Positions 26,601 to 43,705 of a DNA stretch of 64,000 nt are shown here, one piece after another. Every line of letters begins with the position of its first letter. Positions within the stretch are counted from its first letter, which is position 1. The notes under the pieces are model-generated. The model was not told the origin of the DNA. It saw only the letters and a list, made by a program, of their open reading frames with translations, and made no database searches. The translations under genes and the position numbers were made by a program. Origin of the DNA: Candidatus Latescibacterota bacterium (GTDB lineage: Bacteria; Latescibacterota; UBA2968); assembly GCA_965222605.1 (NCBI GenBank), contig OZ244960.1, forward strand, positions 6,240,001 through 6,304,000, read 5' to 3'.

Positions 26601-27306
26601 TGAGGGATGGCTCCAGGCGCAGGCTGTGTACGGATTTTTCCCGGTAAATGCCGATGGCGACGATATTGTCGTGTTTGAAGACGAGCGCAGAGATGCCGAG
26701 CGGGCGCGGTTGCCGATGCTGCGCCAGCAGCAGGAAAAGCGCACGGGGGGACCGTATTTTTCACTGGCCGATTTTGTCGCGCCTATCGGATATGCAGATT
26801 ATATCGGGGCGTTTGCCGTGACTGCGGGATTGGGCGTTGACGCCAAAGCAGCGGCGTTTAAGCACGCACTGGACGATTACAATGCCATTTTGCTTCAGGC
26901 TATAGCGGACCGCCTGGCTGAGGCATTTGCCGAGTTTTTGCACGCAAAGGCGCGGAGAGATTGGGGATACGGTCTGGGCGAGGCGTTGAACAGTGAGGAT
27001 TTGATCAGGGAGAGATATCGCGGTATTCGCCCCGCGCCCGGTTATCCCGCTTGCCCGGATCACACGGAGAAACAGACTTTGTGGGATTTGCTCAGTGTTG
27101 AGAGAGAGACGGATATTCGGTTGACGGAGAATTTTGCGATGTCCCCAGCGGCTTCGGTCAGCGGGTGGTATCTCGCACATCCCGATGCGCGCTATTTTGC
27201 CGTGGGCAAGATTGACGCCGATCAAGTGGCCGATTACGCACGCCGCAAAGGGATGCAGGTGGCGGAGATGGAACGCTGGCTGGCACCAAATTTGGGGTAT
27301 AGATAA
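23650..27306 (+). CDS. metH: cobalamin-dependent methionine synthase
   Basis: [49 protein letters not shown]. Confidence 0.98.
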
Positions 27307-27632
27307 TGGCGCGCTTCAAGCCAGGTTGTGATAGCAATTCAAACGACGTGATAGAGGCTTTTTGTCGGGAAAGAGGTATCGCAAAGTGGTATTCAAAGAT
27401 ACCGGGGCTTCTTGAGAATCATTTCCCAAATTTAGAAGGTGGCGCGTTCAGCCTCCAAAAAGACGATGAGTCTGACGATGTCTTTGTTGAGGTATTATTT
27501 TCGGTCAGGGGTGTTCGAAAAGAGATTTATGAATATTATGATAGATTTCTCGATACCTGGGTCGAGGATGTCCCAGCAAAGGCAAGAGCATATTTCCAGC
27601 TTCTTTTAGATAATGAACAAATCTTACGTTGA
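27306..27632 (+). CDS. hypothetical protein
   Basis: 108-aa acidic ORF whose ATG overlaps the metH stop. Confidence 0.55.
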   Translation: MARFKPGCDSNSNDVIEAFCRERGIAKWYSKIPGLLENHFPNLEGGAFSLQKDDESDDVFVEVLFSVRGVRKEIYEYYDRFLDTWVEDVPAKARAYFQLLLDNEQILR

Positions 27633-27930
27633 GTATCGAGACCAAGGCTATTGGATTGCGAATAGTCGAGTCTCTCTGGATACTATCGTTTATGCTTTTC
27701 TGGATGGACAATCTCCCGAGAGTATTGCCCAATCGCTTCCTGTATTGACACTTGAACAGATCTATGGAGCTATTGCATTCTATCTTGCCCATCAAACAGA
27801 GATTGAGACATATCTTGAGCACTCGAAAGCGAATTTCGAGACAAGGCGAAAAGCATCCCGGGAATCAGACCCTGTATTTTATCAGAAATTAGCGGATGCA
27901 CGGCATGGCGTTGAGACGATTCACAAATGA
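27613..27930 (+). CDS. DUF433 family antitoxin-like protein
   Basis: IANSRVSLDTIV..F.DGQSPESIAQSLPVLTLEQIYGAIAFYL. Confidence 0.88.
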   Translation: MNKSYVEYRDQGYWIANSRVSLDTIVYAFLDGQSPESIAQSLPVLTLEQIYGAIAFYLAHQTEIETYLEHSKANFETRRKASRESDPVFYQKLADARHGVETIHK

Positions 27931-27947
27931 GAATACGATTTTGCTAA
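27927..27947 (+). pseudogene. few-codon remnant of a DUF5615 PIN-like partner
   Basis: ATGA overlap with the DUF433 stop; MRIRFC* resembles the usual M.IRF.. start of such partners. Confidence 0.4.
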
Positions 27948-27951
27948 AGAT

Positions 27952-27985
27952 CAAAGAGTCTCGTAATTGTTTGCGAGGCTCTTTT
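27952..27985 (+). terminator. intrinsic terminator
   Basis: AAAGAGTCTCGTAA...TTGCGAGGCTCTTTT. Confidence 0.65.
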
Positions 27986-28130
27986 AGTTTTTAGATGGAA
28001 ATGTAACGCGGAACGGGGTACAAATACGATAGCAAGTCCAATACAATATGTCCCTTGATAGATGCACATAAAGTCACTATGTTATGGATGATTGATCAGC
28101 CCTGGATTTATATTATAGGAAGGAATAGCA

Positions 28131-31100
28131 ATGCCACTACCTGGCGGACCCGCTGACAAGATTGGAAATCGCTACGAACTGTGGTGGACGGTCTCTCAAT
28201 TTGTACGGATCATCAATGGAGAAGTCGAAAGTATCCGCATAGAGGATCCGACAATTGATAAAGCCGAGTTTGTAGTCACTGCAGGAGGTTGTCGCGAGTT
28301 TCACCAAGCAAAGCGAATCCATCCAGATGGTAAGTGGAGCCTTTCCTCTCTCCAAAGCCTGCTACATACAATGTTCAATCAGCTTTCTACAAGCACCAAC
28401 ACACGATTCGTTTTTGTGTCGGGTAGTGAGGCTCGAGAGCTGAAAGAATTAACAGAACGGGCTGTGGATGCAAAAGACCTGGAGGAATTCGAGTCAGTGT
28501 TTGTTCGTGCTAAATCCCAAAAGCAAAATTTTAATAGACTCAAAGACGTTTGGAATACTGATACTGACACGGCATACGAGATACTTAGACGTATCGAAGT
28601 TCGTACCATTGATGAGATCGGGATTGGAGACCAAGTGCGAGATTCTTTGGCTGTACGGTTCAACCAACCGGATAACGTATGCGATGCACTCCGCAGCGTT
28701 GCTGAAGATTCGATTCATGAAGAGATCAACTACGAGAGGCTGATCTCATATCTTAAAGGTAAAAGGTTCACACTGCGTCAACTTATCAACCGAAATGATG
28801 CCCCTTCGCTCATCAACGAAGTAACAAGTCGTTATCTCAGAGCACGTCGAAAGCTGATTCAAGGCTCCCTTATTCCACGCTCATCGACTCAAGACCTTCT
28901 TGCCAAAATTAAAGAAAATGCGACCAATGGGGCCGACTGCGTCCTCACTGGCAGAGCAGGGGGTGGAAAAACGGGATGCGTAATCGAATGTGTGGAAGCA
29001 CTCCAACAAAGCAATGACGCTGCCGTGCTTGCCTTCCGCCTGGATCGCATAGAGCCGGTATCGTCAACCAAAGAACTGGGCGAACGTCTTGGCCTTGAGG
29101 AATCGCCAGCACTCGTATTGGAGACAGCGGCTGAGTCCCTATCACGCGACGCAGTACTTATTATTGATCAACTCGACGCCGTCAGCACAACTTCTGGTCG
29201 CAGTTCAGATTTCTTTGAAGTTGTGGAAGACCTTTTGGATGAAGTGAGAGGTTTACGCAATAGCGTGAAATTTCACGTTGTTGTTGTCTGCCGAAAGTTT
29301 GATTGGGAGAATGACCATCGCTTGCGTCGCTCTCTCGGAGAGAACCACATAGAAGTCTCCATCACAGATTTTTCTATAGATGAAGTAAAATCGGTGCTCC
29401 AGAATGGTGGCTTCAAAGCTGAACTATTTGAAACAAGGCAATTGGAGTTGCTCTGTCTGCCGCAAAATCTATCGTTGTTCCTTGATACGGATTACGATCT
29501 CAGCTCGCGACCACCGTTCTTCACACAAAAAGATCTGTTTGATCGCTACTGGGATGAAAAACGCCAGGCGGTTAAGAATCGTATCGCGTCCCTGTCTGAT
29601 CGCTGGATGGATGTGATCCAGATGTTGTGTGACAAAATGACTGAATCACAGCAGCTATCAGTGTTGAGGGAGACTCTCGATCAATTCTCGCCCGATTACC
29701 GTGACTCAATGGTGTCGGAGGGTGTGCTTTCATTTGATCAGAACCGTTATAGCTTCGGGCATGAGGCATTTTTCGATTACTGCTTTGCCCGTGGCTTTGT
29801 GGCAAAAGATGAATCCTTGACAGAGTTCCTCAAGAAATCGGAACAACACCTATTTCGCAGAGCACAAGTGCGACAAGTTCTCATTTATCTTCGCGATGCC
29901 GACCCCGAACGGTATTGCCAAGAACTCAGGGCATTATTGACGGATGAGAATATCCGTTATCATTTGAAAGATCTTGCTGTTGCCGTAGCTGTTGTGATGC
30001 CAAATCCCGAGGAAGCTGAATGGAACGTCCTTGAGCCATGGATTGAATCCGAACTTGAAGCGATCAAGAGCAGTACGCCAAATACGGATAAGTTTGCGTC
30101 TTTGGTGTGGGATCGCTTCTTCTCTTCGCAGCCCTGGTTCCAGATTGCGGATGAAAAAGGTCTTGTAGCAGGATGGCTCTCGTCTAACAAAGAAGCCCTT
30201 GTCGATATGGGTGCATACTATGCTCGGTTTCATCAGAGACATGCAGGAGACCGGGTGGCAGACCTTTTAAAGCCATTCGTGGGAAAAGATGGCAATTGGC
30301 CTCAACGGTTTAAGTCTATTATGCAATCGGCTGATCTTGGAAGCAGTCGAAGGTTTTTTGATTTGTTTTTAAGGTTAATAGACGATGGCACTTTGGATGG
30401 GGTCCCTGGATCAACCGATAACAACCGCACATTAGTGGACAGGTGGCCTGGGTTGATAAGGGCACCTCTTGATTGGATACCAGAGTTAATCAATCATTGG
30501 CTTTTAAGAAGACTATCAATAATTCAAGAGGCATGCGCTCCTGGAGAAAGTCCCAACTGGCGTAACTTATTCAATCCTGACGATTCCGTTTCAAAGTATA
30601 TTTACGATTCTGCAAACCAATTTCCTGACAAGTTTGTGCAGCACGTTCTACCAGTTATTTTGAAAATCTCTGATATTGCTATCTCTCAGGATTACAAAGA
30701 TTTGCCTAAACCTGACACAGTGTGGATGTTTTGGCCCGACAGTGAGTATGATCCAATTGAAGAAGTTTGCAGAAAAGCAGTTGCTTTAGTGGTAGAGAAA
30801 CTCGCTGAAAAGAAGTCAGACCGTATTGCTGAAATTTTGGAAAAGCTAAGGGTCCGAGAGACCTACATGGCAAATTATCTTCTTCTTCGGGCCTATACCG
30901 CTGGCGGAAAATACTTTGCCGACGATGCTGTTTCTGAACTCTGCGACAAAAACTGGCGTTTTCGATGCGGATATTCTGACAGCCCTTACTGGATAGCGAT
31001 TCAACTGATAGAGGCGGTCACCCCTCTTTGTTCCGAAGATAACCGCGCAAAACTCGAAAAGGCTATTTGGGATTACACACCGTATTATGAGAGTATTCCT

Positions 31101-32687
31101 GGCGGGTATAAGTATAGAGGGCATGCTTCTTTTGCTTTGCTATCTGGCATACCGGAGGAATTGCGTAGCGAGCGAGCCCAGGCACATTATGCACAACTTG
31201 AGCAGAAGTTCGGGAAGATGGATTTTGCTCCGAGAAGAATCCAGGTGGACTTGGTGGTCTCTCCAATTGAAGAGCCAGAGGCGGAGAAAATGACCGATGA
31301 AGAATGGCTCAGGAAAATTAAAAGATACGACTCGGATGAGATATTATCAGATCCAGAAAATCTTGAAAAGGGTGGGGCCTTAGAATTTGCACGTATGTTG
31401 CAGAAGTTCGTGAAGAAAGAACCAGAACGATTTGCCCGCTTGAGCCTCAAGTTTCCAGTGGATACGCATCTCTTCTACTTAGAACACACACTATGCGGTC
31501 TGAAAGAAACAAACGGCTTCACCGAACTCAAACTCGAGGTATGCCGCAAAGCGTACTCCGAATCACGCGATAAATATGGAAAGGCAATTACTGACTTATT
31601 GGGTTCCATCAGAGATCAGCTTCCCGATGATGCCGTGCAGATGCTCAATTGGCTGGCAACCGGGCACTCCGATCCGGAGAAAGAATTGTGGATTGAAGAA
31701 ATTGCAGGCGGTACACCCGACTATAGAGAAGATATTCTTAATCACGGCATCAACACGACACGCGGACGTGCAGCCGGGGCAATACGCGATCTTATTCGAT
31801 GGGATGCCTCGTACATTGACCGCTTTCGTGCGACTATAGAATGGTTGGTCAGGGATAATAGTTTATCTGTTCGCGCATGCGCGGCCTCAATACTCTTATA
31901 TATCACGAATCACGATTGGGAATTTGCTTTCGAGCAATTTGCCAGGCTCATTGAACCTCAAGACGATCAAACTGATAGTGACTGCTTGCTAGCGAATCCC
32001 TATGTGGATCATTTCATCTATCATGGACTACGCGATCACTTCGGGCGTTTTCAAGACGTTATCGAAAGAATGTTGAGGTCAGAACTTTCTGAGATAAGCG
32101 AAGCTGGTGCTCGGCTGGCGAGCCTTGCTGTACTTTATGAGCACGACAATGCCGAAGACCTTGTAGAAGAAGCAATACGTGGCAATGCTTCGCAAAGACG
32201 TGGAGTGGCTCAAGTGGCATCTGCAAATATTGGACGTAAGGATTGCCGATCATGGGCAGAGCCAAAACTTCTGCTGTTTTTCAATGACCGCGATAGCGAG
32301 GTCTGTCAAGAAGCGGCAAGATGTTTCGGCAGATTGGAAGGACAATCTCTTGAGTCTTACGAAGACCTGATAAACAAATTTTGCGATAGCGCGGCCTGTC
32401 AGAAAAACTCGTTTTCTCTACTGCATGCCCTTGAGGTATCCTCGCACCAGTTGCCCGGTATCACACACATCGTATGCGAGAAGTTTCTCAAACGGTTTAG
32501 CGACGAAGCGAGGGATATTCATACGGGACGAGCACTGGATGTTACTTTCGTGCCAAAGTTGGTGTTCAGAACATACCACCAACATCAAAACGACGAGTGG
32601 GCGCCTAAATGTCTTGATCTGATAGATCAAATGTGCCTTGAGAGAATGTCTGGGATAGGGCAGAAGTTGGATGAATACGCAAGGTAA
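28131..32687 (+). CDS. Avs-like STAND (NACHT-type) NTPase with N-terminal PD-(D/E)XK/Cap4-like nuclease and long helical C-terminus
   Basis: GNRYE..W, IRIED..IDKAEF...EFHQAK; Walker A GRAGGGKT, Walker B VLIIDQLD, FGHEAFFDY; about 900 aa of HEAT-like repeats. Confidence 0.8.
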   Translation: MPLPGGPADKIGNRYELWWTVSQFVRIINGEVESIRIEDPTIDKAEFVVTAGGCREFHQAKRIHPDGKWSLSSLQSLLHTMFNQLSTSTNTRFVFVSGSEARELKELTERAVDAKDLEEFESVFVRAKSQKQNFNRLKDVWNTDTDTAYEILRRIEVRTIDEIGIGDQVRDSLAVRFNQPDNVCDALRSVAEDSIHEEINYERLISYLKGKRFTLRQLINRNDAPSLINEVTSRYLRARRKLIQGSLIPRSSTQDLLAKIKENATNGADCVLTGRAGGGKTGCVIECVEALQQSNDAAVLAFRLDRIEPVSSTKELGERLGLEESPALVLETAAESLSRDAVLIIDQLDAVSTTSGRSSDFFEVVEDLLDEVRGLRNSVKFHVVVVCRKFDWENDHRLRRSLGENHIEVSITDFSIDEVKSVLQNGGFKAELFETRQLELLCLPQNLSLFLDTDYDLSSRPPFFTQKDLFDRYWDEKRQAVKNRIASLSDRWMDVIQMLCDKMTESQQLSVLRETLDQFSPDYRDSMVSEGVLSFDQNRYSFGHEAFFDYCFARGFVAKDESLTEFLKKSEQHLFRRAQVRQVLIYLRDADPERYCQELRALLTDENIRYHLKDLAVAVAVVMPNPEEAEWNVLEPWIESELEAIKSSTPNTDKFASLVWDRFFSSQPWFQIADEKGLVAGWLSSNKEALVDMGAYYARFHQRHAGDRVADLLKPFVGKDGNWPQRFKSIMQSADLGSSRRFFDLFLRLIDDGTLDGVPGSTDNNRTLVDRWPGLIRAPLDWIPELINHWLLRRLSIIQEACAPGESPNWRNLFNPDDSVSKYIYDSANQFPDKFVQHVLPVILKISDIAISQDYKDLPKPDTVWMFWPDSEYDPIEEVCRKAVALVVEKLAEKKSDRIAEILEKLRVRETYMANYLLLRAYTAGGKYFADDAVSELCDKNWRFRCGYSDSPYWIAIQLIEAVTPLCSEDNRAKLEKAIWDYTPYYESIPGGYKYRGHASFALLSGIPEELRSERAQAHYAQLEQKFGKMDFAPRRIQVDLVVSPIEEPEAEKMTDEEWLRKIKRYDSDEILSDPENLEKGGALEFARMLQKFVKKEPERFARLSLKFPVDTHLFYLEHTLCGLKETNGFTELKLEVCRKAYSESRDKYGKAITDLLGSIRDQLPDDAVQMLNWLATGHSDPEKELWIEEIAGGTPDYREDILNHGINTTRGRAAGAIRDLIRWDASYIDRFRATIEWLVRDNSLSVRACAASILLYITNHDWEFAFEQFARLIEPQDDQTDSDCLLANPYVDHFIYHGLRDHFGRFQDVIERMLRSELSEISEAGARLASLAVLYEHDNAEDLVEEAIRGNASQRRGVAQVASANIGRKDCRSWAEPKLLLFFNDRDSEVCQEAARCFGRLEGQSLESYEDLINKFCDSAACQKNSFSLLHALEVSSHQLPGITHIVCEKFLKRFSDEARDIHTGRALDVTFVPKLVFRTYHQHQNDEWAPKCLDLIDQMCLERMSGIGQKLDEYAR

Positions 32688-32780
32688 TACCGGGCCAAGT
32701 GTTATTCCACCAGACCATCTCGAGTCAGGATGACGGCCAACGTTCTCTTATCACAGGTTTCATAACCGAGATGCAGTGCA

Positions 32781-32905
32781 GCAATGTTGACGCTCGATGC
32801 ATGGGTGTGCGGAACAAGATTATTCCAGATATGCGTGCCACAATGGCACCGAGCCTGACTTTATCGAGAAGGAAAACCGATTCACTGTGCGGCTTTGGAA
32901 TAAGC
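32781..32905 (+). pseudogene. C-terminal remnant of an AlbA_2/HATPase_c_4-type (RecG C-terminal-like) protein
   Basis: NVDARCMGVRNKIIPDMRA, then frameshift, then NGTEPDFIEKENRFTVRLWNK. Confidence 0.5.
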
Positions 32906-32994
32906 CAGGGGACACGCTGGCGTATCAGCCACTCTGACGAGCGGTATCCAACATTCAAAGACGCAGCAGTCTGAAAGAGGGGAGGAGGCACGAG

Positions 32995-34542
32995 GTGGAA
33001 CCATTAGGTTATATCAAGGTCAAAGAATTTCTTGAAAGAACTCGTGGAGCTGTTCGCGGATACGTTATTACAGACGCCAAATACAGAACATTTTCCGCGG
33101 ATTATCAATATCGAGAAATTCATGATGGGTTTTTGATCGTTTCACGTAAGGATGGTACTGGGGATGAAGTAAAGATCAAATCGGAAATCGAACTCAATGA
33201 AGGGTTAGTCTCATTTTTTGGGCTGTATAGCGGAGACGGCGCAAAGGGTAGTGAGGACAAGCATAATTTAGGGGTCATTAAGCCCTCAATTTCATTTTCG
33301 CAAAGGGAATCAAACCTCGTACGTTTTGCAGTAGAACAGTTTCGCAAAATATTTTCAGATGGAATACGGTTTACGTTTTCATTGGGAGAGGATAGTGCCT
33401 TTTTTATGGCAGACGAAGGCTGGGACAGATTAAAAAATTATTATGGGGGATATATTCCAGAAACACCTCCTCTCTCAATAGTCCGACAATCATTAAGTGC
33501 TGCCGATAAGAAGTATTTAGCAGAAAGCCGAGATGTGCCTGGCACCAACGAAGACCATTTAGCCTTCTATTATTTTCATAAGAATGCTATGCAGGAAATT
33601 CTCGCATATGAAAAAGAGATCGATTTGAAAAAAAGCGGATTAGTTTTAGATCGGGCAGATACAGTCACAGCTTCTTTACGGCGACCATTCAAAAAAGGTG
33701 CCCGAGAACCGGGCGGATCCAGCAGGTCTGATGAAATCTATATTGGCGGCCTTAATAGGTTCGGCGAGTTTTTCCTTAAAATGCTTTACGAGATGGAAGA
33801 TTCCATCCATGCGGATACCTGGGTTTCTCCCCAAGGGCTTATTCAATGGATAGACAAACCATCATCTATAGGGAGGGATATTGACGTTAAAGCATTTTTC
33901 TCGTTACATCCCTACGGAAATCTCGCTGGTAATCGCCCAAAAATAATAGAAAATTTTGGTATATTAGAAGGTATGTGGCCAAGGTCCAGAAGGCTTATAC
34001 TCAAGCCAACTTTGCGGATAGATCCCCTTTTCTGTTATATCTCAGGGCTCTATTTGGCCGAAGGATCAACCCCGAAATCCAAAATGTTTGCAATGTTTTC
34101 TCAAAAGGTTACAGGGATGAGCTTGGCGTTTACTTCATCAGAAGACAGAAGCCTTGATTTGATTTTGAGAGCCTTACAGAAGTTATTTCAGAAAGATGAT
34201 TGTGTTGCCACCTGGAAAATCAAGGTTGGATCGCAGTATTTCCCTGAACTTGTTATGATTGGTCTCAAAAACGGCGTACCGATGCTGCGGGGTGGTCGGA
34301 GTGGAGATGGTAAATTGCGTACAATGGAAATTTCGACGGCATTAAAACCCTGGGCTTTAGATACAGCACCAGCTCTTATACCCTTTGAAGATAAATTCTC
34401 CCATGTAGAACCTACGGGCGCCGGTCTGGCCAGATTAGATTTCTCCGCGTCTCCTACTTTGTGTAAATGGTTTTTCCCGTTGCTGATGTTTGCTACATTT
34501 GGGGATACAGTAGAAGACCCCTCCGAGGCGTTTACCTTATGA
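32995..34542 (+). CDS. free-standing two-motif LAGLIDADG-like endonuclease (putative)
   Basis: LVSFFGLYSGDG...ISFSQRESNLVRFAVEQFRKIF and FCYISGLYLAEG...LAFTSSEDRSLDLILRALQKLF; RBS GGAGGAGG. Confidence 0.65.
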   Translation: MEPLGYIKVKEFLERTRGAVRGYVITDAKYRTFSADYQYREIHDGFLIVSRKDGTGDEVKIKSEIELNEGLVSFFGLYSGDGAKGSEDKHNLGVIKPSISFSQRESNLVRFAVEQFRKIFSDGIRFTFSLGEDSAFFMADEGWDRLKNYYGGYIPETPPLSIVRQSLSAADKKYLAESRDVPGTNEDHLAFYYFHKNAMQEILAYEKEIDLKKSGLVLDRADTVTASLRRPFKKGAREPGGSSRSDEIYIGGLNRFGEFFLKMLYEMEDSIHADTWVSPQGLIQWIDKPSSIGRDIDVKAFFSLHPYGNLAGNRPKIIENFGILEGMWPRSRRLILKPTLRIDPLFCYISGLYLAEGSTPKSKMFAMFSQKVTGMSLAFTSSEDRSLDLILRALQKLFQKDDCVATWKIKVGSQYFPELVMIGLKNGVPMLRGGRSGDGKLRTMEISTALKPWALDTAPALIPFEDKFSHVEPTGAGLARLDFSASPTLCKWFFPLLMFATFGDTVEDPSEAFTL

Positions 34543-35528
34543 TTGACTATATTATTATTCCAGGTGTTGATGTTTCTACGCTAAAGATCGTTCCACAACA
34601 CGGGCGTTGGCTCAGAGATTGGTTATTGGACATTGAAACAGAAATCTCTAATGATTCTGTTTCTTCGGCATGGTGTCTTCAAGGAATTTTGGTTGAGCTT
34701 GCTCTTTTCGGATGCGTCCAGACGGATTGGGAAGGGATCATCAGGGAATTATTAAAAGATGAAGAGGGAAAACCGCTTGCGTACTCAGCAAGGTATGAAA
34801 AAAAATTACACAATTTCTCTCGTCAATGGAAACAAACGCCTATCCACGCTATCTATACGCATTGGTGGATTGATAGATACAATGGTTCTGACGCCAACAA
34901 TATCAATGCCTATAGGGACTTGATCAAACGCTGTATTCAGCCAAGTGGTTGGATCTATAATCCCGATGTCAGTCCGACAGATCCCCGAACAAGAATGAAA
35001 GCTGAATTGATGCTCTCTCTTTCTATGGGCGTAGAAATACTGTCCGCTCAGGGCTTAGATCAGACCCAAAAGTCTCTGTTTGAGGCCATCCTGAGTTCGA
35101 CAAATGTAACTGGCTATTTGAGTGCAGAGTGTTTTAGAATGCGTACTCTCCAGATGCTGTCGGCTACCTATTTGGCACCTTATGGCCTGGGAGAAATTAT
35201 TGATCCCTGTGAAGCAGAAGAAGGCTATTGCGATTTCTCAGTAGAATCAAAAGTCGATGATTATATGGGAACGGCCAAAAGGACATCGCGCGACAAGCCC
35301 ATACACTCAGCCATCTCTGCTTTGCATGCTCGTCAAATCGCAAAATATTGCGATTTAGAAACCCAACAAGCAGTCCAATCGAGACTCTCAAATTTTGCTG
35401 GCTATCTCTCAGCGTATCCACTGGATATTCCGGCGTTTCGGATGAGAGATATCGATGTTCCCTTTGGAACAGACCTCTCCCCTTTAGAGATATTTGCCGC
35501 CTCTCACATCATTTCTACCACCGGGTAA
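34539..35528 (+). CDS. hypothetical alpha-helical protein (possible alpha/alpha-toroid)
   Basis: ATGA overlap; 329 aa; CIQPSGWIYNP and CEAEEGYCDF resemble QxxxGW/GF prenyltransferase/cyclase repeat turns. Confidence 0.7.
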   Translation: MIDYIIIPGVDVSTLKIVPQHGRWLRDWLLDIETEISNDSVSSAWCLQGILVELALFGCVQTDWEGIIRELLKDEEGKPLAYSARYEKKLHNFSRQWKQTPIHAIYTHWWIDRYNGSDANNINAYRDLIKRCIQPSGWIYNPDVSPTDPRTRMKAELMLSLSMGVEILSAQGLDQTQKSLFEAILSSTNVTGYLSAECFRMRTLQMLSATYLAPYGLGEIIDPCEAEEGYCDFSVESKVDDYMGTAKRTSRDKPIHSAISALHARQIAKYCDLETQQAVQSRLSNFAGYLSAYPLDIPAFRMRDIDVPFGTDLSPLEIFAASHIISTTG

Positions 35529-35529
35529 T

Positions 35530-38289
35530 ATGAACACATCCGAACAGAGTATCTTGCACTTTAAGGAGTTTGATGATGCGGAACAGGTGCATCTCAAACT
35601 CAAGCCTTATATTCAGCCATTCGAGCAGCTTCTCGCTCAAGGCGAGTTGTACGGTCTTATAGGCGACAGTTACGCGAAGTATCCGTTCTCTAAGCCAGCA
35701 GATCAACAGGTTACACTCGCCCAAAAGAATCTCAAACAAGATCTGTTTAGAAGACTTGCTTATTGGGAACAAATCGGAAATTTGGCACTGGAGCCAACAT
35801 TTCAGATTCTGCTCGAGTCAGAAAAACACTTAACCGACTTAAGTGGTCAAAGCAACTTCAAATTTCACAAATCTCGAAAGTTGCGATACGGGCCGCATGG
35901 CATACACGAGTATCGGGGCAAATTCTTTCCTCAGTTGGTCAAAGCCCTGATCAATTTTGCAGGCTTACAACCGGGGGAGGTCGTTATTGACCCCATGTGT
36001 GGAAGTGGCACGACGAATATTGAAGCCCGATCAATGGGTATGCAAACAATCGGTGCAGATCTCAATCCGCTGTCAGTGAAAATATCTCGTGTAAAGACTT
36101 CTGTTTTTGATCTTGATCTCGCGTCTATTAATACGCACTTGACACGATTTTTGACTGCGATCAAAGAGACTGATATTCGCAAATCGGTCGCCGAATATCC
36201 CTGGAATAAAGACGACACCACCTATCTAAACAGATGGTTTGCCCCAGAGGCCCTCAAAGAGTTGGCGTTTATCCTTACCAAAATTGCAGACACAACGGAT
36301 AAAAAGACGCGGAGGTTTTTGCAGGTTTGCCTGAGCAATATTATCAGATCCATATCCTGGCAAAGAGAATCTGACTTGCGCGTCCGAAAGGAGATTACCA
36401 ACTATACGCCGGGCATGGCAATACAACTCTTGTCCCAAGAAATCAAGAAGAGCATCGCAAAAATCACAGCTTATTTATCTTGTTTTAACGGAATCAAGAC
36501 ATTCCCTCAGTTTACAATTCAAGAAGGTGATGCACGCAATATCCACACTGTTTTTCCGACGTGGGTAGGCAAATGTGATGTTCTTATTACATCGCCCCCT
36601 TATGCAATGGCCCTCCCATATATTGATACCGACCGCTTGAGTTTATCAACGTTAGGACTACTCCCTCGAGGTAGCCACAGGGCGCGTGAGTATGAGATGA
36701 TTGGAAATCGGGAGATCACAAATGCTCAACGGCAGGCATTATGGGAAAATTATCTGGCAAGAAGAAATGGGCTTCCCAAAAACGTAAGGGAGGTTGTCGA
36801 AACAGTTGACGAAGCAAATAAACGCGAGACGGTCGGGTTCCGCAGAAAGAACCTGTCTGCGCTTCTTGGGCGGTATTTCCTGGATATGTCAGATGCCATG
36901 CAGAATGCACTCAAAATGATGCGTCCAGGCCATTTCGGTTTTTACGTCGTTGGAAACAACAGTACCACAATTGATGGCAAACGATTTGAAATTGAGACCG
37001 ATAAACTGGTGTGGGAGATTGGAAAAAAGGTTGGCTGGAAGCAAAGGAAGATGCTCAATATGGAGTTGCTACCCTCGAGAGATATTTTTCGGAATAACAA
37101 GGGATCATCAGAATCGATCCTCTGGTTTCAAGCTTCAGGAGAGAAGCTCCAGAGAAAAGCCATCTACGGAGCGACGAGTAAGCAGATTGAGAATTTATCC
37201 AATGGAGATTGGGATTTTCACAAAGAGAATACGCAACAGCATTTACATGCAATCCATTCCTATCCTGCGCGATTCATTCCGCAAATTCCTAATAAAGCCA
37301 TAAGAACTTGGACCAATCCTGGGGAAGTTGTCCTCGATCCATTCTGCGGATGTGGAACGACACTTTTGGAAAGCGTTATTTTAGGACGGGAGGCCATAGG
37401 TATCGATAATAACGCTGTGGCTTGCTTGATCAGTCGGGCAAAGGTTGCTGATTATACAGATGAAGACATCAAAATCTTGACAGATTTCTTAAGCAAGATA
37501 GATGAGAAACTTTCGACGCTTTCCAAGCCGCTTGAACTCCCCGAATACCATAATGTATCATATTGGTTCAGTGATGATGCCCTAAAAGACTTGGGTAAAA
37601 TCAAGGCTATCATCAATCAATTACCAGAAAAACCAGGTGCCTTTGCGATGGCGATATTTTCGGCCATTATCGTTCGGGTTTCAAACCAAGATAGCGATAC
37701 CCGTTATGCGCGAATAAAAAAATCCTATGACCAAGGCAATGCAATCGAATGGTTTAAAAGCCGCCTCGTAGATGCTCTCAAACGTCTCAAAGCAATCGCC
37801 ACCTTATCCAAGGCTCAAGCAGTTGTTCACTGTATTGATGGTCGAGACCTGAGCGTTATACCTGATGGCAGCGTCAATTTGATCGTGACTTCGCCACCTT
37901 ATATCAACGCCTATGACTATCATAAATATCACCGTCACAGGTTGCACTGGATTGATGGAAGTGTTGAACTCGCGAGAGATACAGAAATCGGAAAGCATGA
38001 CACGTTCACCCGCCCCAAAGCCACGCCAGATCGTTATTTTGAAGACATGCAAAAATGCTTTGCAGAGTGGCAACGGGTCTTAACTCCTGATGGAAAGGCT
38101 TTTGTTGTTATCGGCGATGGTATTGTAAATAAAACACCTGTTCCTGTAGGAGATAAGTTCGTTGAGATCATGGAACAGTTAGGACTTAAGACCGCGGATC
38201 GATGGATACGAACGCTCCAAAAATCTAAGAAATCCTTTAACCAACATGGTCGAATTGACAAAGAGCATGTCCTCTTATTTGAGAAATGA
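35530..38289 (+). CDS. tandem double amino-DNA methyltransferase (N4-cytosine type, motif I before motif IV)
   Basis: Domain 1 HEYRGKFFPQL..DPMCGSGTT..ITSPPY; domain 2 HSYPARFIPQI..DPFCGCGTT..VTSPPY. Confidence 0.9.
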   Translation: MNTSEQSILHFKEFDDAEQVHLKLKPYIQPFEQLLAQGELYGLIGDSYAKYPFSKPADQQVTLAQKNLKQDLFRRLAYWEQIGNLALEPTFQILLESEKHLTDLSGQSNFKFHKSRKLRYGPHGIHEYRGKFFPQLVKALINFAGLQPGEVVIDPMCGSGTTNIEARSMGMQTIGADLNPLSVKISRVKTSVFDLDLASINTHLTRFLTAIKETDIRKSVAEYPWNKDDTTYLNRWFAPEALKELAFILTKIADTTDKKTRRFLQVCLSNIIRSISWQRESDLRVRKEITNYTPGMAIQLLSQEIKKSIAKITAYLSCFNGIKTFPQFTIQEGDARNIHTVFPTWVGKCDVLITSPPYAMALPYIDTDRLSLSTLGLLPRGSHRAREYEMIGNREITNAQRQALWENYLARRNGLPKNVREVVETVDEANKRETVGFRRKNLSALLGRYFLDMSDAMQNALKMMRPGHFGFYVVGNNSTTIDGKRFEIETDKLVWEIGKKVGWKQRKMLNMELLPSRDIFRNNKGSSESILWFQASGEKLQRKAIYGATSKQIENLSNGDWDFHKENTQQHLHAIHSYPARFIPQIPNKAIRTWTNPGEVVLDPFCGCGTTLLESVILGREAIGIDNNAVACLISRAKVADYTDEDIKILTDFLSKIDEKLSTLSKPLELPEYHNVSYWFSDDALKDLGKIKAIINQLPEKPGAFAMAIFSAIIVRVSNQDSDTRYARIKKSYDQGNAIEWFKSRLVDALKRLKAIATLSKAQAVVHCIDGRDLSVIPDGSVNLIVTSPPYINAYDYHKYHRHRLHWIDGSVELARDTEIGKHDTFTRPKATPDRYFEDMQKCFAEWQRVLTPDGKAFVVIGDGIVNKTPVPVGDKFVEIMEQLGLKTADRWIRTLQKSKKSFNQHGRIDKEHVLLFEK

Positions 38290-38347
38290 GTGAATCGGAA
38301 CACGATTCTCAACCTTGTGATCTATCTTGACATAAGGAATCGAAAGC

Positions 38348-39400
38348 ATGAACCAAGAATCACGCTGTCCAATCTGGAATACACCAGCTTCCGGAGAATC
38401 TCTTTTTAATAAAGGGATAGATTCGCCTCGTGCGGGCGGAAGGTACCTCATTACTCTGGAAGCTATTACACTCTTGCCGCAAATTGATGACCGCGTTAAG
38501 GCGCGCTTGACCTCGTGGTTGGTCGATCAGCGACGATTGGGCGTCGAATGTCCGGAAATATTCCAGGAAACGATCAAGATGGTGGAAAAGCAAGAAGATT
38601 TGTCCGTCCACGAGCGTGCAGATCGACTTCTCCAGTATATTGGAGATCAAACTGAAGAGATTGGTCACCGTGTTTCGTTCACAGTTCCCGATATGTCCAA
38701 CACAGCGATAGCAGCGTGGTCGGAATCTGTCGAACGGCAGGAGGTAGAAGTTCTATTAAATTATTTGGGTGAGCAGGGTTGGATAAAAAGCAGTACAGAG
38801 TATAAACATAATACCCTAACAGTCGAGGGATACGCTCGACTTGAAGAACTTGAGACAACGAATGCCGAATCATCAAAAGGCTTTGTAGCCATCTCAGATG
38901 ATTTGACGACTCTACCGACGGAGCCTGGGAAGAAGGTATTAGACGCGGAATCGAAGATGCGGGATGTTTTCATAATTCATGGACACGATGATGGCACAAA
39001 AGAAACTGTCGCTCGATTTATCGAGCGACTCGGGCTAAAGCCTATTATCCTTCATGAACAACCCAACCAGGGACAAACGATTATTGAGAAATTTGAGCGA
39101 TATGCTGAGGTTGCATTCGCCATTGCTCTCCTGACTCCGGACGATACTGGTGGCCTATCGAAAGACGAACAGTCTCTCAAACCACGCGCACGACAAAATG
39201 TCATATTTGAGTTTGGATATTTTATGGGCAAGTTAGGCCGCCAGCGAGTTTGTGCATTAAAAAAAGAGAATGTCGAGACACCCTCCGACTATGACGGTGT
39301 GCTATATATTGCCTTTGATGAATCTGGCGCATGGAAGATGGAACTTGTGAAAGAATTGAAGAACGCGGGATTTGATGTTGATGCGAATCTGGCAATCTGA
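38348..39400 (+). CDS. TIR-like (CAP12/Pycsar-type) nucleotide-binding domain protein with wHTH-like N-terminus
   Basis: VFIIHGHD, ILHEQPNQGQTIIEKFE, LLTPDD, RARQNVIFEFGYF, PSDYDG. Confidence 0.85.
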   Translation: MNQESRCPIWNTPASGESLFNKGIDSPRAGGRYLITLEAITLLPQIDDRVKARLTSWLVDQRRLGVECPEIFQETIKMVEKQEDLSVHERADRLLQYIGDQTEEIGHRVSFTVPDMSNTAIAAWSESVERQEVEVLLNYLGEQGWIKSSTEYKHNTLTVEGYARLEELETTNAESSKGFVAISDDLTTLPTEPGKKVLDAESKMRDVFIIHGHDDGTKETVARFIERLGLKPIILHEQPNQGQTIIEKFERYAEVAFAIALLTPDDTGGLSKDEQSLKPRARQNVIFEFGYFMGKLGRQRVCALKKENVETPSDYDGVLYIAFDESGAWKMELVKELKNAGFDVDANLAI

Positions 39401-39432
39401 ACGTCGTGGAACAGGTCTTGGGACTTTTCCAG

Positions 39433-39475
39433 GTGTTTGTCCACCAATCATTTAGCCTCACAAAATTAATTGATC
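39433..39475 (+). repeat. island-internal repeat, copy A (matches 43825-43873 and 39972-40002)
   Basis: GTGTTTGTCCACCA.T...TTAGCC.CACAA shared with 43825. Confidence 0.65.
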
Positions 39476-39535
39476 ATGCTAAAGGTCTGGCCGAGAGGAA
39501 GTTATGTATTCGAGTTGCTTTCCCGATGTCCTATG

Positions 39536-39862
39536 CTATAGCTTGATACAATCTAACCTCAGCCGAAACCCCAGAGCGGAAATAATAGCCATCAGATTGT
39601 CGAGTTTCGGTTTGCTGCAACTTGAAAGCACACGATAGAGATGTTCGCGGTTCAGTCCGGCGCGTTTTGCCAATGCACCGACCCCACCTTGTGCCTTGGC
39701 GACGTCCCGCAAGGCCAATAACAGCCCATCAGTCTCACCACTTGCTTCACACTCATCCAGTGAGACTTCCAGATAAACCCGAGCTTCTTCGGGGTCTTTG
39801 AGAGATTTTATCAGTCCTTCTTCGTAACTGACCGTGTGTTTCAAAACCTGTTTTTTAGTCAT
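39536..39862 (-). CDS. addiction module antidote protein (HTH)
   Basis: LKDPEEARVYL, LLLALRDVAKAQGGVGALAKRAGLNREHLYRVLS. Confidence 0.9.
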   Translation of the reverse strand: MTKKQVLKHTVSYEEGLIKSLKDPEEARVYLEVSLDECEASGETDGLLLALRDVAKAQGGVGALAKRAGLNREHLYRVLSSCSKPKLDNLMAIISALGFRLRLDCIKL

Positions 39863-39911
39863 GGCTGCGGCTCCTCAAGTCCTGCCAATATGCTTTGGCG
39901 CGTTCAATTTC
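39855..39911 (-). pseudogene. 3' remnant of a RelE/ParE-like addiction module killer gene
   Basis: EIERAKAYWQDLRSRSHD* overlapping the antidote start; rest of the gene absent. Confidence 0.65.
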
Positions 39912-40137
39912 AAAATGTAGCGTACACGCGACAAAAAGTAAACAATAAGACGATACTGCTTCAGAATCTACCCCCACAAGATCAATTGATGATTTTGTGG
40001 GGTTTTTCATATCATCAATTTGTAGGTGCATGATTCGATCAGAGATGCGACCAATAGTACATATTTTGGCATACTATATGTTGATAAATACGACATCACA
40101 TCGTATGTTTATTTTTACACACAAAAGGAGAACCATC

Positions 40138-40389
40138 ATGGCAAAAAACAAGCGTGTTGTTTTTAAGTTTGATGCGCCCAGCTTAAGAGCTTTGGAAGTT
40201 ATGACCAAAGAAGGTTGCTATAACTCGATGGGCGATACGATTTGTGAATCCTTAAAAATTAGTCGCGCGCTCCAAACTCAGGCGAGACAAGGCTTTTCTG
40301 AAATTACATTACTTAACCCTGACACAGGTGAAAAACGCGTTGTTGTCATCCCTCACTTGCAATCATTGGCACAAGAAATAGCCTCTTAA
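40138..40389 (+). CDS. small hypothetical protein (RHH-like N-terminus)
   Basis: RBS AAAGGAG; MAKNKRVVFKFD...LNPDTGEKRVVVIP. Confidence 0.65.
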   Translation: MAKNKRVVFKFDAPSLRALEVMTKEGCYNSMGDTICESLKISRALQTQARQGFSEITLLNPDTGEKRVVVIPHLQSLAQEIAS

Positions 40390-40451
40390 TTTTATTATCA
40401 TCGAGCATCTTTATATCGCGACAATTATCATTTGATAAGAGAGACGAGAAT

Positions 40452-40472
40452 ATGAACAAGTCTTACGTTAAG
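40452..40472 (+). repeat. orphan copy of the DUF433 gene start (matches 27613-27633)
   Basis: ATGAACAAGTCTTACGTTAAG vs ATGAACAAATCTTACGTTGAG (19/21). Confidence 0.55.
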
Positions 40473-40581
40473 CGGTACCGAGATGACACAGACCAGACAA
40501 GACCCCCCCAACAAAAGACTAACCTATCAGAAATTCCCCCTATTGCACAACGCCATGTTGTTGACTTTACCGAGGTGACCT

Positions 40582-41799
40582 ATGGCTGAACCCATTCTAC
40601 GCCAGTTGATATTGCATCGTTTCCGTAGCCTTCGGTTGGAACAAGTAGAATTCGACAACCCGACCTTTCTCGTCGGTCAAAATGGCTCTGGCAAGAGTAA
40701 CTTCGCCGATGCCTTCGCATTCCTCGCAGAGGCAATGGCCTCCCCACTGCAAGCAGTTCTCGATCATCGTGGGGGATTTGCCGCAGTTGCCCATCGAAGC
40801 TCTGCAAGGGGCCGTCCATCAAACTTGGGCTTGTCAGTGGTGTTGGAGAATCTGGATGGCGATACACCCCAGGCGCGATATGCATTCGAGTTACGCGCCC
40901 GGAGAAGCTACGGCTTTGAGGTTGTGCGCGAGCAATGCATCGTGCAGAAGTCAGATGGATCGAGTACCTGGTTTGATCGCGCCATGTCCCCCAAAGGTTC
41001 TTTCATAGGTTGGAAAAGCCGCAGGTATTCTCCTAAACCGCTCATGGAACCGAGCGCCCTTGCCCTACCTCTGATCGGAGGCGACGTGCGCTTTCAGGCG
41101 ATTTCGCGATTCCTGTCGGAAATGCGCGTGTATCGGATTGACCCGGCTGCTCTGCGAACAATGCGAGATGCGGATGGGGGTGTGCGCTTACATTCTGATG
41201 GCAGCAATGCAGCCAGCGTGCTACGCGAGATCCAACGCGAATCTCCGTATGCCTGGAGGCAGATTCTTGAAATTCTCGAAAGTATTGTCCCCGGTACCAT
41301 CGGCGTCCAGCCCAAAAAGCAAGGTAACAAGCTCACCCTGGAGTTCACCCAGGATTGGGCACAGACGAAGCCCGTGAAGTTCGAGGCCCTCAACATTTCC
41401 GACGGCACGTTGCGAGCACTGGGACTGCTCGCAGCGGTTTTTCAGCGTCCAGCACCCTCGTTGCTCGTCATTGAAGAACCGGAAGCCACAATCCATCCAG
41501 GAGCTCTTGGCTCTATTCTGGATATACTACGACATGCTGGGCGTTTTATGCAGGTCGTAGTGACGACACATAGTCCGGATGTTCTCGATGCCAAATGGAT
41601 TGAAGATCGCCACTTGAGGATTGTGAACTGTGATAAAGGAGCGACGCGGATTAGCCGAGTCTCGCCAGCGACACGGGAGGCCCTGAGCGAGCACCTGATG
41701 GGCGCAGGCGAGTTGCTCCGCTCGAACGCTCTGACGCCCGCCGATTTGTTCGACCATAATCCACGCCAACTCAGGTTGTTCGAGGATGACCTCTCATGA
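40582..41799 (+). CDS. AAA_21 family ABC-like ATPase
   Basis: GQNGSGKS, ISDGTLR, VIEEPEATIHP, VTTHSP. Confidence 0.9.
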   Translation: MAEPILRQLILHRFRSLRLEQVEFDNPTFLVGQNGSGKSNFADAFAFLAEAMASPLQAVLDHRGGFAAVAHRSSARGRPSNLGLSVVLENLDGDTPQARYAFELRARRSYGFEVVREQCIVQKSDGSSTWFDRAMSPKGSFIGWKSRRYSPKPLMEPSALALPLIGGDVRFQAISRFLSEMRVYRIDPAALRTMRDADGGVRLHSDGSNAASVLREIQRESPYAWRQILEILESIVPGTIGVQPKKQGNKLTLEFTQDWAQTKPVKFEALNISDGTLRALGLLAAVFQRPAPSLLVIEEPEATIHPGALGSILDILRHAGRFMQVVVTTHSPDVLDAKWIEDRHLRIVNCDKGATRISRVSPATREALSEHLMGAGELLRSNALTPADLFDHNPRQLRLFEDDLS

Positions 41800-42586: not shown

Positions 42587-43705
42587 ATGGGCCTCAAGAT
42601 TCAAAACCTTACACTAAAACATTTTCGCGCATTCCGAGAATTGCGTATTAATGGCTTGGGCCGCGTGAACCTCATCACTGGAAAAAACAACACCGGAAAG
42701 TCGTCGGTGCTCGAGGCATTACATATTTTCGCTCATGGCGCAGCACTTGACGTAATTAGCCACGTACTTGAACGGCGCGAAGGAAACATTAGAGTAGAAG
42801 GGGAAGGGCGTACTGCTGATAGGGAGCGCCTAATTCAAATTTCCACTCTGTTCTATGGGTTCCCCGAACCTTCAGATTTCACAGAGCCGATCGTCATTTC
42901 CACCAAAGACAATTCATGCCCTATGCGGTTGACGATGCAGGTAGGCTGGTTTTCGGAGGAACGTGGCACCGACGGCAACTTGCGGTTGGTTCCTTTGCAA
43001 GCAGACTCCTTTGACGAGCCAGATGACGTCGCAGCATTGGTAGTTGAGACACAAAATAAAAAAAAGCGAATCCTTGCACTGGAAAGGCTTGAGCGATACT
43101 CTTACCTGAGCAGAATTTCCGCACCTGGTTCTGAAACCCAAATACCCTGCATCTTTGTCAGCCCTTATGATGAACGGACAGCGATATTGGCTCCCTTATG
43201 GGACAGGATTTCGCTAACAAAATTCGAGAATCATGTCGTTGAGGCTTTGCAAATCATCGAACCACGGATATCTGCTGTCAATATGATATATGATGAAAAC
43301 AGTAACATAGGACGCAAGGCGATTGTCCGGATTGAGAATATTGATCGACCTGTACCGCTACGGTTGTTGGGCGACGGCGTGAATCGCCTTCTCGACATAG
43401 CCCTCTCGCTCATCAACGCTCGCGGGGGGCTCTTGTTAATAGATGAATTTGAAAACGGCTTGCATCACACAGTCCAGTTCGATGCCTGGAAGACTATATT
43501 CCTCTTGGCCAGGGAACTCGACATACAGGTCTTCGCCACTTCGCACAGTTGGGACGCGGTGGAGGCATTTCAGCAGGCTTCGGCAGAAATACCTGAAGAA
43601 GGAGCTCTCGTGCGTCTGACCCGAAGAGGTGAAGAGATCATTCCCACTGTATTCTCAGAAGATGAACTGGCTATTGTGACTCGTAACAGAGTCGAGGTAC
43701 GCTGA
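42587..43705 (+). CDS. AAA_21/AbiEii-type ABC-like ATPase (paralog of 7172..8278)
   Basis: GKNNTGKS, LLGDG, LLIDEFENGLH, ATSHS, C-terminal VEVR. Confidence 0.88.
   Translation: MGLKIQNLTLKHFRAFRELRINGLGRVNLITGKNNTGKSSVLEALHIFAHGAALDVISHVLERREGNIRVEGEGRTADRERLIQISTLFYGFPEPSDFTEPIVISTKDNSCPMRLTMQVGWFSEERGTDGNLRLVPLQADSFDEPDDVAALVVETQNKKKRILALERLERYSYLSRISAPGSETQIPCIFVSPYDERTAILAPLWDRISLTKFENHVVEALQIIEPRISAVNMIYDENSNIGRKAIVRIENIDRPVPLRLLGDGVNRLLDIALSLINARGGLLLIDEFENGLHHTVQFDAWKTIFLLARELDIQVFATSHSWDAVEAFQQASAEIPEEGALVRLTRRGEEIIPTVFSEDELAIVTRNRVEVR

Follow-up and report, generated by a model that had tools for sequence, protein, structure and literature searches.

A putative restriction-modification cassette pairing a predicted double-LAGLIDADG nuclease with a toroid protein and a two-module DNA methyltransferase in Candidatus Latescibacterota

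Organization of the locus

The 64,000-nucleotide stretch of DNA analysed here, referred to throughout as the window, comes from the genome of Candidatus Latescibacterota bacterium (assembly GCA_965222605.1, contig OZ244960.1, positions 6,240,001 to 6,304,000 of the forward strand) and carries a tight operon of three genes, designated B, C, and D. The first of these, B, encodes a predicted free-standing protein with two LAGLIDADG repeats; C encodes a predicted helical toroid, and D contains two methyltransferase modules, M1 and M2. The features of the operon, numbered from the first nucleotide of the window, are as follows.

32980-32988, + strand: Shine-Dalgarno-like sequence GGGAGGAGG, 6 nucleotides before the GTG of B, read directly from the DNA
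32995-34542, + strand: gene B, 515 codons with a GTG start in the list of open reading frames (ORFs); putative restriction nuclease with a predicted double-LAGLIDADG fold
33199-33240, + strand: LAGLIDADG helix 1 of B, residues 69-81, containing FFGLYSGDG and the putative catalytic residue D81 (DSSP helix on the model)
33445-33996, + strand: insertion of ~185 residues between the two repeats of B, residues ~151-334, placed from alignments and the secondary structure of the model
34024-34065, + strand: LAGLIDADG helix 2 of B, residues 344-356, containing ISGLYLAEG and the putative catalytic residue E356 (DSSP helix on the model)
34539-35528, + strand: gene C, 329 residues, predicted alpha/alpha toroid of no known family (ORF list and model; a longer ORF from 34467 is possible)
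35530-37134, + strand: gene D, module M1, DPMCGSGT followed by TSPPY (Pfam N6_N4_Mtase/UPF0020; PADLOC MTase_II, 1e-78)
37135-38289, + strand: gene D, module M2, DPFCGCGT followed by TSPPY (PADLOC MTase_II, 2e-76, over residues 566-931)

The gene upstream of B ends 307 nucleotides before the B start codon. The TGA of B overlaps the ATG of C as ATGA at 34539, and C is probably made by translational coupling with B. The TAA of C is followed after a single base by the likely ATG of D at 35530, within an ORF that is open from a TTG at 35494. A scan for promoters and terminators gave no clear excess over shuffled sequence, with 9 promoter-like sites against a shuffle mean of 12.4 (standard deviation 3.5) and 11 terminator-like sites against a mean of 6.2 (standard deviation 2.6). 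A repeat search revealed no flanking repeats bounding the three genes, and no tRNA genes were found near them.

By sequence, D fuses two SPPY DNA amino-methyltransferase modules, each with an FxGxG-type motif followed by TSPPY. SPPY is found more often in N4-cytosine enzymes, and the PDB sequence matches of D include both N4-cytosine and N6-adenine methyltransferases, over the S-adenosylmethionine (SAM) motif only. Both modules also give weak matches to the MADS/mad2 and DUF1156 anti-phage methyltransferase models, limited to 35-55 residues at the SAM-binding motif and far under the cut-offs.

Predicted folds of B and C

A first-pass annotation of this DNA, made from the sequence alone, had described B as a free-standing protein with two LAGLIDADG-like motifs, and its account of the gene agrees with the translation of the 515-residue ORF. 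FFGLYSGDG occupies residues 74-82 (33214-33240) and is followed by ISFSQRESNLV..F, whereas ISGLYLAEG, followed by LAFTSSEDRSL, occupies residues 349-357 (34039-34065); the measured spacing of 275 residues equals the approximate figure given earlier, and the large insertions then described correspond, between the repeats, to the segment of ~185 residues listed above. That segment carries a conserved basic loop, RRPFKKGARxPGGSSRSDE, in which K234 and G235 are invariant. The earlier view that B has its own ribosome-binding site and lies in neither an intein nor an intron is likewise borne out, as GGGAGGAGG precedes the GTG by 6 nucleotides, B has no Pfam Hint domain match, and an Rfam scan of 27000-41000 matched no family and hence no intron family.

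The structure of B was predicted with AlphaFold2 from a 45-sequence alignment, giving a model with a mean predicted local distance difference test score (pLDDT) of 94.6 and a predicted template modelling score (pTM) of 0.93. In this model the LAGLIDADG helices, at 69-81 and 344-356, end exactly at D81 and E356 (DSSP), and they pack at the interface of two alpha-beta domains to form a predicted pseudo-dimer, each helix closing at its C-terminal end with an acidic residue that is conserved. In the DSSP assignments each repeat reads as helix, two short strands, helix, and strand; further strands follow the large insertions at 223-229 and 245-251 in one half and at 468-473 and 480-485 in the other. 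To this core B adds an N-terminal beta domain of ~60 residues, the insertion of ~185 residues, and a C-terminal extension of ~80 residues.

An exhaustive VIA-align comparison of the model with 48,161 PDB representative chains returned exactly 15 with Z>=5, all of them of LAGLIDADG fold, the next row falling at Z 3.9. The best match is I-DmoI (2vs8_A; Z 9.7, root-mean-square deviation (rmsd) 3.9, 179 of 183 residues, model range 65-507), and others include PI-PfuI and the TliVMA intein endonuclease (both Z 8.9) and two structures of WhiA (8dy9_I, Z 8.0; 3hyi_A, Z 7.7). Also among the 15 are E-DreI, I-Tsp061I, PI-TkoII, mMsoI, PI-SceI, an I-OnuI-family enzyme, an engineered I-CreI, I-WcaI, and I-LtrI. 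A search of BFVD with the same model gave weak rows only, mostly intein-bearing giant-virus proteins, and ESM Atlas placed B with LAGLIDADG_3 clusters at 0.84, below the 0.9 mark and useful as leads only. The paired LAGLIDADG domains whose absence from a predicted structure had been named beforehand as the outcome that would overturn the assignment are thus present, in a model of high confidence for which 15 of 15 chains at Z>=5 share the fold. B is predicted to be a free-standing single-chain double-LAGLIDADG protein.

The sequence family to which B belongs leads to a similar assignment. When 8000 candidates were scored, at least 363 homologues had E<=0.001, none bearing a name other than "hypothetical protein", and the family comprises 88 representatives in a library clustered at 50% identity. 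In the 45-member alignment, which extends down to 23% identity, Y78, G80, D81, G82, and K84 around the first motif and G351, Y353, A355, E356, and G357 around the second are invariant, as is K234 in the insertion; K84, at 33244-33246, lies outside the range of helix 1. The claim that acidic residues are retained at the catalytic positions therefore holds for D81 and E356 throughout these 45 family members, and a divergent 22-sequence set has the same invariant pattern, D81 and E356 included.

Comparison of the N-terminal half of B (55-160) with the C-terminal half (330-470) by hhalign shows the two to be homologous and in register (probability 91%, E 1.1e-6), with GLYSGDG paired to GLYLAEG, SFSQRE to FTSSE, and SLGEDSAYF to KVGSQYF, and the halves represent an internal duplication. 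A merged profile of 16 N-terminal and 16 C-terminal repeats was searched against 177,635 PDB sequences and ranked I-DmoI first (E 0.069), with I-DmoI variants making up 7 of the 8 best rows and with GLIIGDG and GLYVAEG of I-DmoI both matched in register. At the level of sequence this match appears specific, if marginal when taken alone. Q103 of B additionally aligns with the Gln of the I-DmoI ITQKS strand, a residue of the active site. Other profile comparisons were less informative. The full-length B family profile gave noise only against PDB sequences (E>=0.26); the N-terminal repeat aligned weakly with the intein LAGLIDADG_3 alignment (hhalign E 0.004, probability 8%), and the C-terminal repeat showed no relation to it (hhalign E 0.33). 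A search of the source genome for PF14528 found nothing. The basic loops that follow the two repeats (215-300 and 420-515) are related only weakly by hhalign (E 0.022, probability 2%), and the suggestion of symmetry between K234 and K436-440 is tentative.

The model of C (pLDDT 87.8, pTM 0.88) is almost wholly helical, with 13 helices, and is predicted to form the closed (alpha/alpha)6 barrel of an alpha/alpha toroid. VIA-align superposes it on the geranylgeranyltransferase beta subunit 3dra_B over 272 residues (Z 15.6, rmsd 4.5), and the best 50 rows of the search are all alpha/alpha barrels, none of them a nuclease, with sequence identities of 4-12%. The best Foldseek rows contain the same alpha/alpha folds (E 0.011), and ESM Atlas offers prenyltransferase or cyclase clusters at 0.85, again below the 0.9 mark and leads only. 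No family was found for C in Pfam, PADLOC, NCBIfam, or PHROGs, where the only rows were noise (NCBIfam Rep helicase, E 0.031; PHROGs, E 0.14 and 0.33), and the C family profile searched against PDB sequences also yielded noise only. The invariant residues of C are W64, P79, Y82, Q99, G137, S145, R152, E156, E197, R200, G229, F233, K238, D240, G244, K247, R248, D252, P294, F309, G310, and E317. Most of them lie in long inter-helix loops of the model, a placement compatible with an active site or with an interaction surface.

Conservation, distribution, and setting of the cassette

A locus scan of one genome per species identified 22 loci containing B. Homologues of D adjoin B in all 22, as one fused gene or two and sometimes upstream or on the opposite strand, so that the putative nuclease gene is linked throughout to methyltransferase genes, as in Type II restriction-modification (R-M) systems. 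C is present at full length in 20 of the 22; of the other two, L008 retains a 49-residue remnant and the contig of L013 ends inside B. When all ORFs of at least 100 residues from these loci and the window were clustered, B and the methyltransferases were each found in 23 of 23 loci and C in 21. No other ORF of that size was common to more than 8 of the 23, and ORFs of this size furnish the cassette with no conserved ATPase, helicase, small nuclease, or further component. Most of the sets that recur in 4-8 loci consist of ORFs lying within B, C, or D on the other strand. The genes flanking the cassette vary from locus to locus.

Gene order within the cassette is more variable than its content. 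M1 and M2 are fused in the window and in some relatives, are two adjacent genes in L003, L004, L012, L015, L021, L022, and L044, and in L016, L018, and most divergent loci are encoded on the opposite strand. Because fused and split forms occur in different loci, the methyltransferase fusion must have arisen or broken repeatedly. The association extends to a divergent subfamily, 25-30% identical to B and bearing the motif GDGNKT, that was recovered from 16 metagenome contigs. In 10 of these, a pair of methyltransferases of the same family lies beside B, the other 6 being no longer than 3.3 kb and ending at B or C. Wherever a divergent contig has sequence downstream of B (11 of 11), a C-like ORF of 321-373 residues follows directly; 8 of these ORFs match the hidden Markov model (HMM) of C (E 5e-15 to 2e-7), and the other 3 are recognized by an HMM built from the divergent C-like ORFs (E 6e-23 to 3e-14). 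The complete cassette is also present on one viral contig. An ORF family of 234-359 residues lies upstream of the cassette in 4 of the 23 loci (L006, 7223-8302; L007, 7041-8120; L010, 6666-7448; L019, 493-1197) and could be a mobility gene.

The 22 loci span ~11 phyla, among them Latescibacterota, Poribacteria, Bacillota, Bacteroidota, Chloroflexota, Nitrospirota, Pseudomonadota, Myxococcota, and Bdellovibrionota, and include one Thermoplasmatota archaeon. Within Latescibacterota itself, B occurs in 4 of 168 genomes, the source genome counted, and both other copies from the same genus are broken. The 92%-identical relative L001 (10590-10680; G084) has a 1-nucleotide deletion at an A7 run in B and a TAG, although a frameshift in a homopolymer could be a sequencing error. 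L065 (G082), of the same genus, retains only a remnant corresponding to B residues 4-213, with no C and a 24-residue trace of D. Elsewhere, B is truncated to residues 281-509 in L014, and in L008 both C and the first methyltransferase have been lost, with the end of M2 retained. The cassette thus shows the mobile, patchy spread, with frequent decay of the putative nuclease gene, that is characteristic of Type II R-M systems. In the window, GC content is 0.44-0.47 across 28000-40000 versus 0.49-0.53 in most of the remainder, consistent with horizontal acquisition of this island. Patchy spread, decayed copies, and a low-GC setting together describe the behaviour of a mobile R-M or defence module.

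The genes around the cassette, which lies among defence-type genes directly after metH (23650-27306), give the region from 28 to 44 kb the look of a defence island. Directly upstream is a STAND-type NTPase of 1518 residues (28131-32687, + strand), a PADLOC candidate (PDC-M54A, 2e-19) with a Pfam nSTAND_NTPase5 match under the cut-off and a possible HEAT repeat toward its C-terminal end; it probably represents a distinct defence gene. Directly downstream of D is a protein of 350 residues (38348-39400, + strand) with a CAP12/Pycsar-type TIR domain (Pfam 1.6e-41) that is also a PADLOC candidate (PDC-S35, 3e-79). An HI1420-type antitoxin gene (39536-39862, - strand) and two genes for AAA_21/AAA_15 (AbiEii/OLD-like) ATPases (40582-41799 and 42587-43705, both + strand) follow. 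Membership of the cassette was weighed for the STAND NTPase and the TIR gene and rejected, because neither accompanies B at other loci, except for a 32-residue NTPase match in L001.

Interpretation and comparison with known systems

From the folds, the invariant residues, the operon, and the co-conservation described above, we infer that B, C, and the two-module D form a mobile R-M system directed at an asymmetric site, in which B would be the nuclease and C its obligate partner, an account that we regard as reasonably probable. In such a system D would methylate an asymmetric recognition sequence wherever it occurs in the host genome, each module acting on one strand or one half. B, as a pseudo-dimeric monomer, would recognize unmethylated copies of that sequence and would cut both strands via two adjacent active sites built on D81 and E356, whereas C, most likely bound to B, would aid DNA binding, methylation sensing, or the control of cleavage, the whole serving in defence against foreign DNA. 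Because the two DNA-reading halves of B are not identical, the protein would be suited to an asymmetric site. Known LAGLIDADG enzymes make Mg2+-dependent cuts across the minor groove that leave 4-nucleotide 3' overhangs. The idea, raised in the first-pass annotation, that the insertions of B may bind a partner fits the presence of a co-encoded and probably translationally coupled C. The attention that annotation gave to M-modified as against unmethylated DNA accords with the presence of a conserved methyltransferase pair. The description of B as domesticated can be kept in the sense of recruitment as the putative nuclease of a mobile R-M cassette and is to be dropped in the sense of a host housekeeping gene.

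Several observations weigh against this account. The main difficulty is site length. Known LAGLIDADG enzymes read sites of 14-40 bp, which would fit poorly with the restriction of short phage genomes and with cover by two ordinary methyltransferases; B would need a short site, or C and the insertions would have to reshape its recognition. The assignment of B is also harder to see outside the exhaustive structure comparison and the repeat profiles. B has no match in Pfam, PADLOC, NCBIfam, or PHROGs, LAGLIDADG models included: Pfam returns nothing at E<=0.1, PF00961, PF03161, PF14528, and PF14527 among the families without a match, and 26 relatives of B searched at E<=10 likewise gave no LAGLIDADG family, with only stray matches to at most 2 members per family. 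Foldseek finds nothing for the B model in the PDB at E<=0.001, a few intein endonucleases appearing among the weak rows, and the leading VIA-align Z, 9.7, is a moderate value given that the model has 515 residues. The structural matches include the catalytically dead WhiA. Finally, C has neither a nuclease-like nor a known DNA-binding fold, so that the role proposed for it is a guess.

The depth of conservation of C, which accompanies B as persistently as the methyltransferases do, suggests a different division of labour, in which B would be a sequence reader or at most a nickase and C would supply the essential catalytic step on DNA from a hydrolase-type site on the loop face of the toroid. 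Invariant charged residues in the long inter-helix loops of C (R152, E156, E197, R200, K238, D240, K247, R248, D252, and E317) could furnish such a site, and the fold is shared by many enzymes, including prenyltransferases, cyclases, and glycoside hydrolases. We consider this arrangement unlikely, however, since K84 and the two LAGLIDADG acidic residues, which would be needless in a pure reader, are invariant in B family-wide, the 50 best structural rows for C are without exception non-nuclease barrels, and alpha/alpha toroids are not known among nucleases or DNA glycosylases. The invariant acidic pair speaks in the same way against B as a catalytically silent, WhiA-like regulator that would govern methyltransferase expression in the manner of a controller protein, with C in some unrelated role. 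The two WhiA structures among the matches of B, and the failure of canonical LAGLIDADG Pfam models to recognize it, are in keeping with such a regulator; yet no helix-turn-helix (HTH) family is detected in B by Pfam, a 515-residue regulator with a 329-residue partner would be oversized, and in L001 and L014 a broken B stands beside methyltransferases matched at full length by tblastn, the pattern expected of a toxic nuclease. A regulatory role is thus very improbable indeed.

An intact catalytic pair in a LAGLIDADG fold and a patchy distribution are also what would be seen if B were a selfish, free-standing homing endonuclease that lies beside methyltransferases by chance, homes into B-less alleles, and has no part in defence, and free-standing homing endonuclease genes do occur in phages and bacteria. 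The link of B with C and two methyltransferases nevertheless holds at 25-30% identity and where gene order and orientation have been rearranged, and such persistence indicates a functional unit and not a chance insertion. The flanking genes, moreover, differ between loci, so that there is no conserved target gene, and no intron or intein was found; we regard chance association as highly unlikely. Some other methylation-linked logic, in which B and C attack modified foreign DNA or the modification made by D acts as a signal, would accommodate C as an otherwise unexplained extra component and could draw on the matches of D to the MADS/mad2 and DUF1156 models. Those matches are confined to the SAM-binding motif, however, no ATPase, helicase, or further component is found consistently with the cassette among ORFs of at least 100 residues, and the simplest layout of the Type II-like kind is a compact nuclease accompanied by a pair of methyltransferases, which leaves this alternative improbable. 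The R-M reading could itself be carried further, to B and C as a new class of restriction enzyme in which a methylation-sensitive LAGLIDADG core of shortened specificity works with a toroid partner that is either a DNA-acting hydrolase or a sensor gating cleavage, a proposal that we hold to be speculative and rather doubtful.

Such a nuclease would be unusual among restriction enzymes. In the 2014 review of Type II enzymes, the principal catalytic themes are PD-D/EXK, HNH, and GIY-YIG; the review, in the portion of its text available, names LAGLIDADG 0 times (PMC4081073), and a review of homing endonucleases and related host proteins assigns restriction enzymes to the PD-(D/E)xK, GIY-YIG, and beta-beta-alpha-metal folds, likewise in the portion available (PMC3384342). 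Across the available parts of these reviews, the restriction folds are PD-(D/E)XK, HNH, and GIY-YIG, with PLD and half-pipe as rarer forms, and LAGLIDADG appears as the one homing family without restriction relatives. No report of a LAGLIDADG restriction enzyme was found in the full-text literature searched, REBASE and subscription journals aside, recent mentions being in other connections, and neither was this combination of nuclease fold and partner protein found described for an R-M system in the same literature. If the R-M reading is correct, a widespread LAGLIDADG cassette, with more than 360 homologues in ~11 phyla, would bring a new fold to restriction enzymology and would constitute an evolutionary link between homing endonucleases and R-M systems. 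It would also raise the questions of how a fold that reads 14-40-bp sites works with ordinary methyltransferases and of what the toroid partner does. B and C would fill a gap in defence annotation, as PADLOC and NCBIfam recognize neither, and compact, methylation-sensitive nucleases or nickases for asymmetric sites might find use in biotechnology. Were B and C to prove a new class with an active toroid, they would represent a two-protein mechanism without precedent among restriction enzymes and a natural scaffold for a methylation-controlled meganuclease.

Among known proteins, those closest to B are I-DmoI and the other single-chain LAGLIDADG enzymes (PI-PfuI, I-SceI, and the I-OnuI family), which share with it two helices that each end in an acidic residue. 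B and I-DmoI are alike in presenting the D/E pair in GDG and AEG contexts (GLIIGDG and GLYVAEG in I-DmoI), and the predicted pseudo-dimeric core of B superposes on nearly all of I-DmoI. B differs in length, with 515 residues compared to ~190-250 in single-chain LAGLIDADG homing endonucleases, and in being free of any intron or intein, lacking a Pfam LAGLIDADG match, and being encoded with a toroid partner and two methyltransferases. Its own ribosome-binding site and start codon, the lack of a Pfam Hint domain or Rfam intron, and its varied flanks place B outside the homing endonucleases as a biological class. WhiA/DUF199 proteins, transcription factors of bacteria whose LAGLIDADG fold is degenerate and which have lost the catalytic acidic residues and carry a C-terminal HTH, offer a second comparison: they and B are both free-standing bacterial double-LAGLIDADG folds recruited to a host function. 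In B, however, D81 and E356 are invariant, and there is no HTH or PF14527 match, which sets it apart from that family. C, for its part, shares its overall toroid fold with the beta subunits of protein prenyltransferases, with terpene cyclases, and with other (alpha/alpha)6 barrels, from which it is distinguished by an identity of 4-12%, the absence of a Pfam match, and its R-M operon context.

The closest parallel in organization lies with the BbvCI-type enzymes, whose subunits are PD-(D/E)XK nucleases. The BbvCI-like Type IIT/IIS R-M systems, as described in the accessible part of a published account, act at asymmetric sites with a nuclease of two subunits and follow the same logic of gene content, with two methyltransferase activities and two other co-transcribed proteins in a compact mobile cassette (PMC6326814). 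Type IIT enzymes, according to the available part of the 2014 review, have two different catalytic sites in the nuclease, an arrangement that suits an asymmetric site (PMC4081073). Unlike in BbvCI, both putative catalytic sites of the system proposed here would reside in a single LAGLIDADG chain, and the second protein would be an alpha/alpha toroid.

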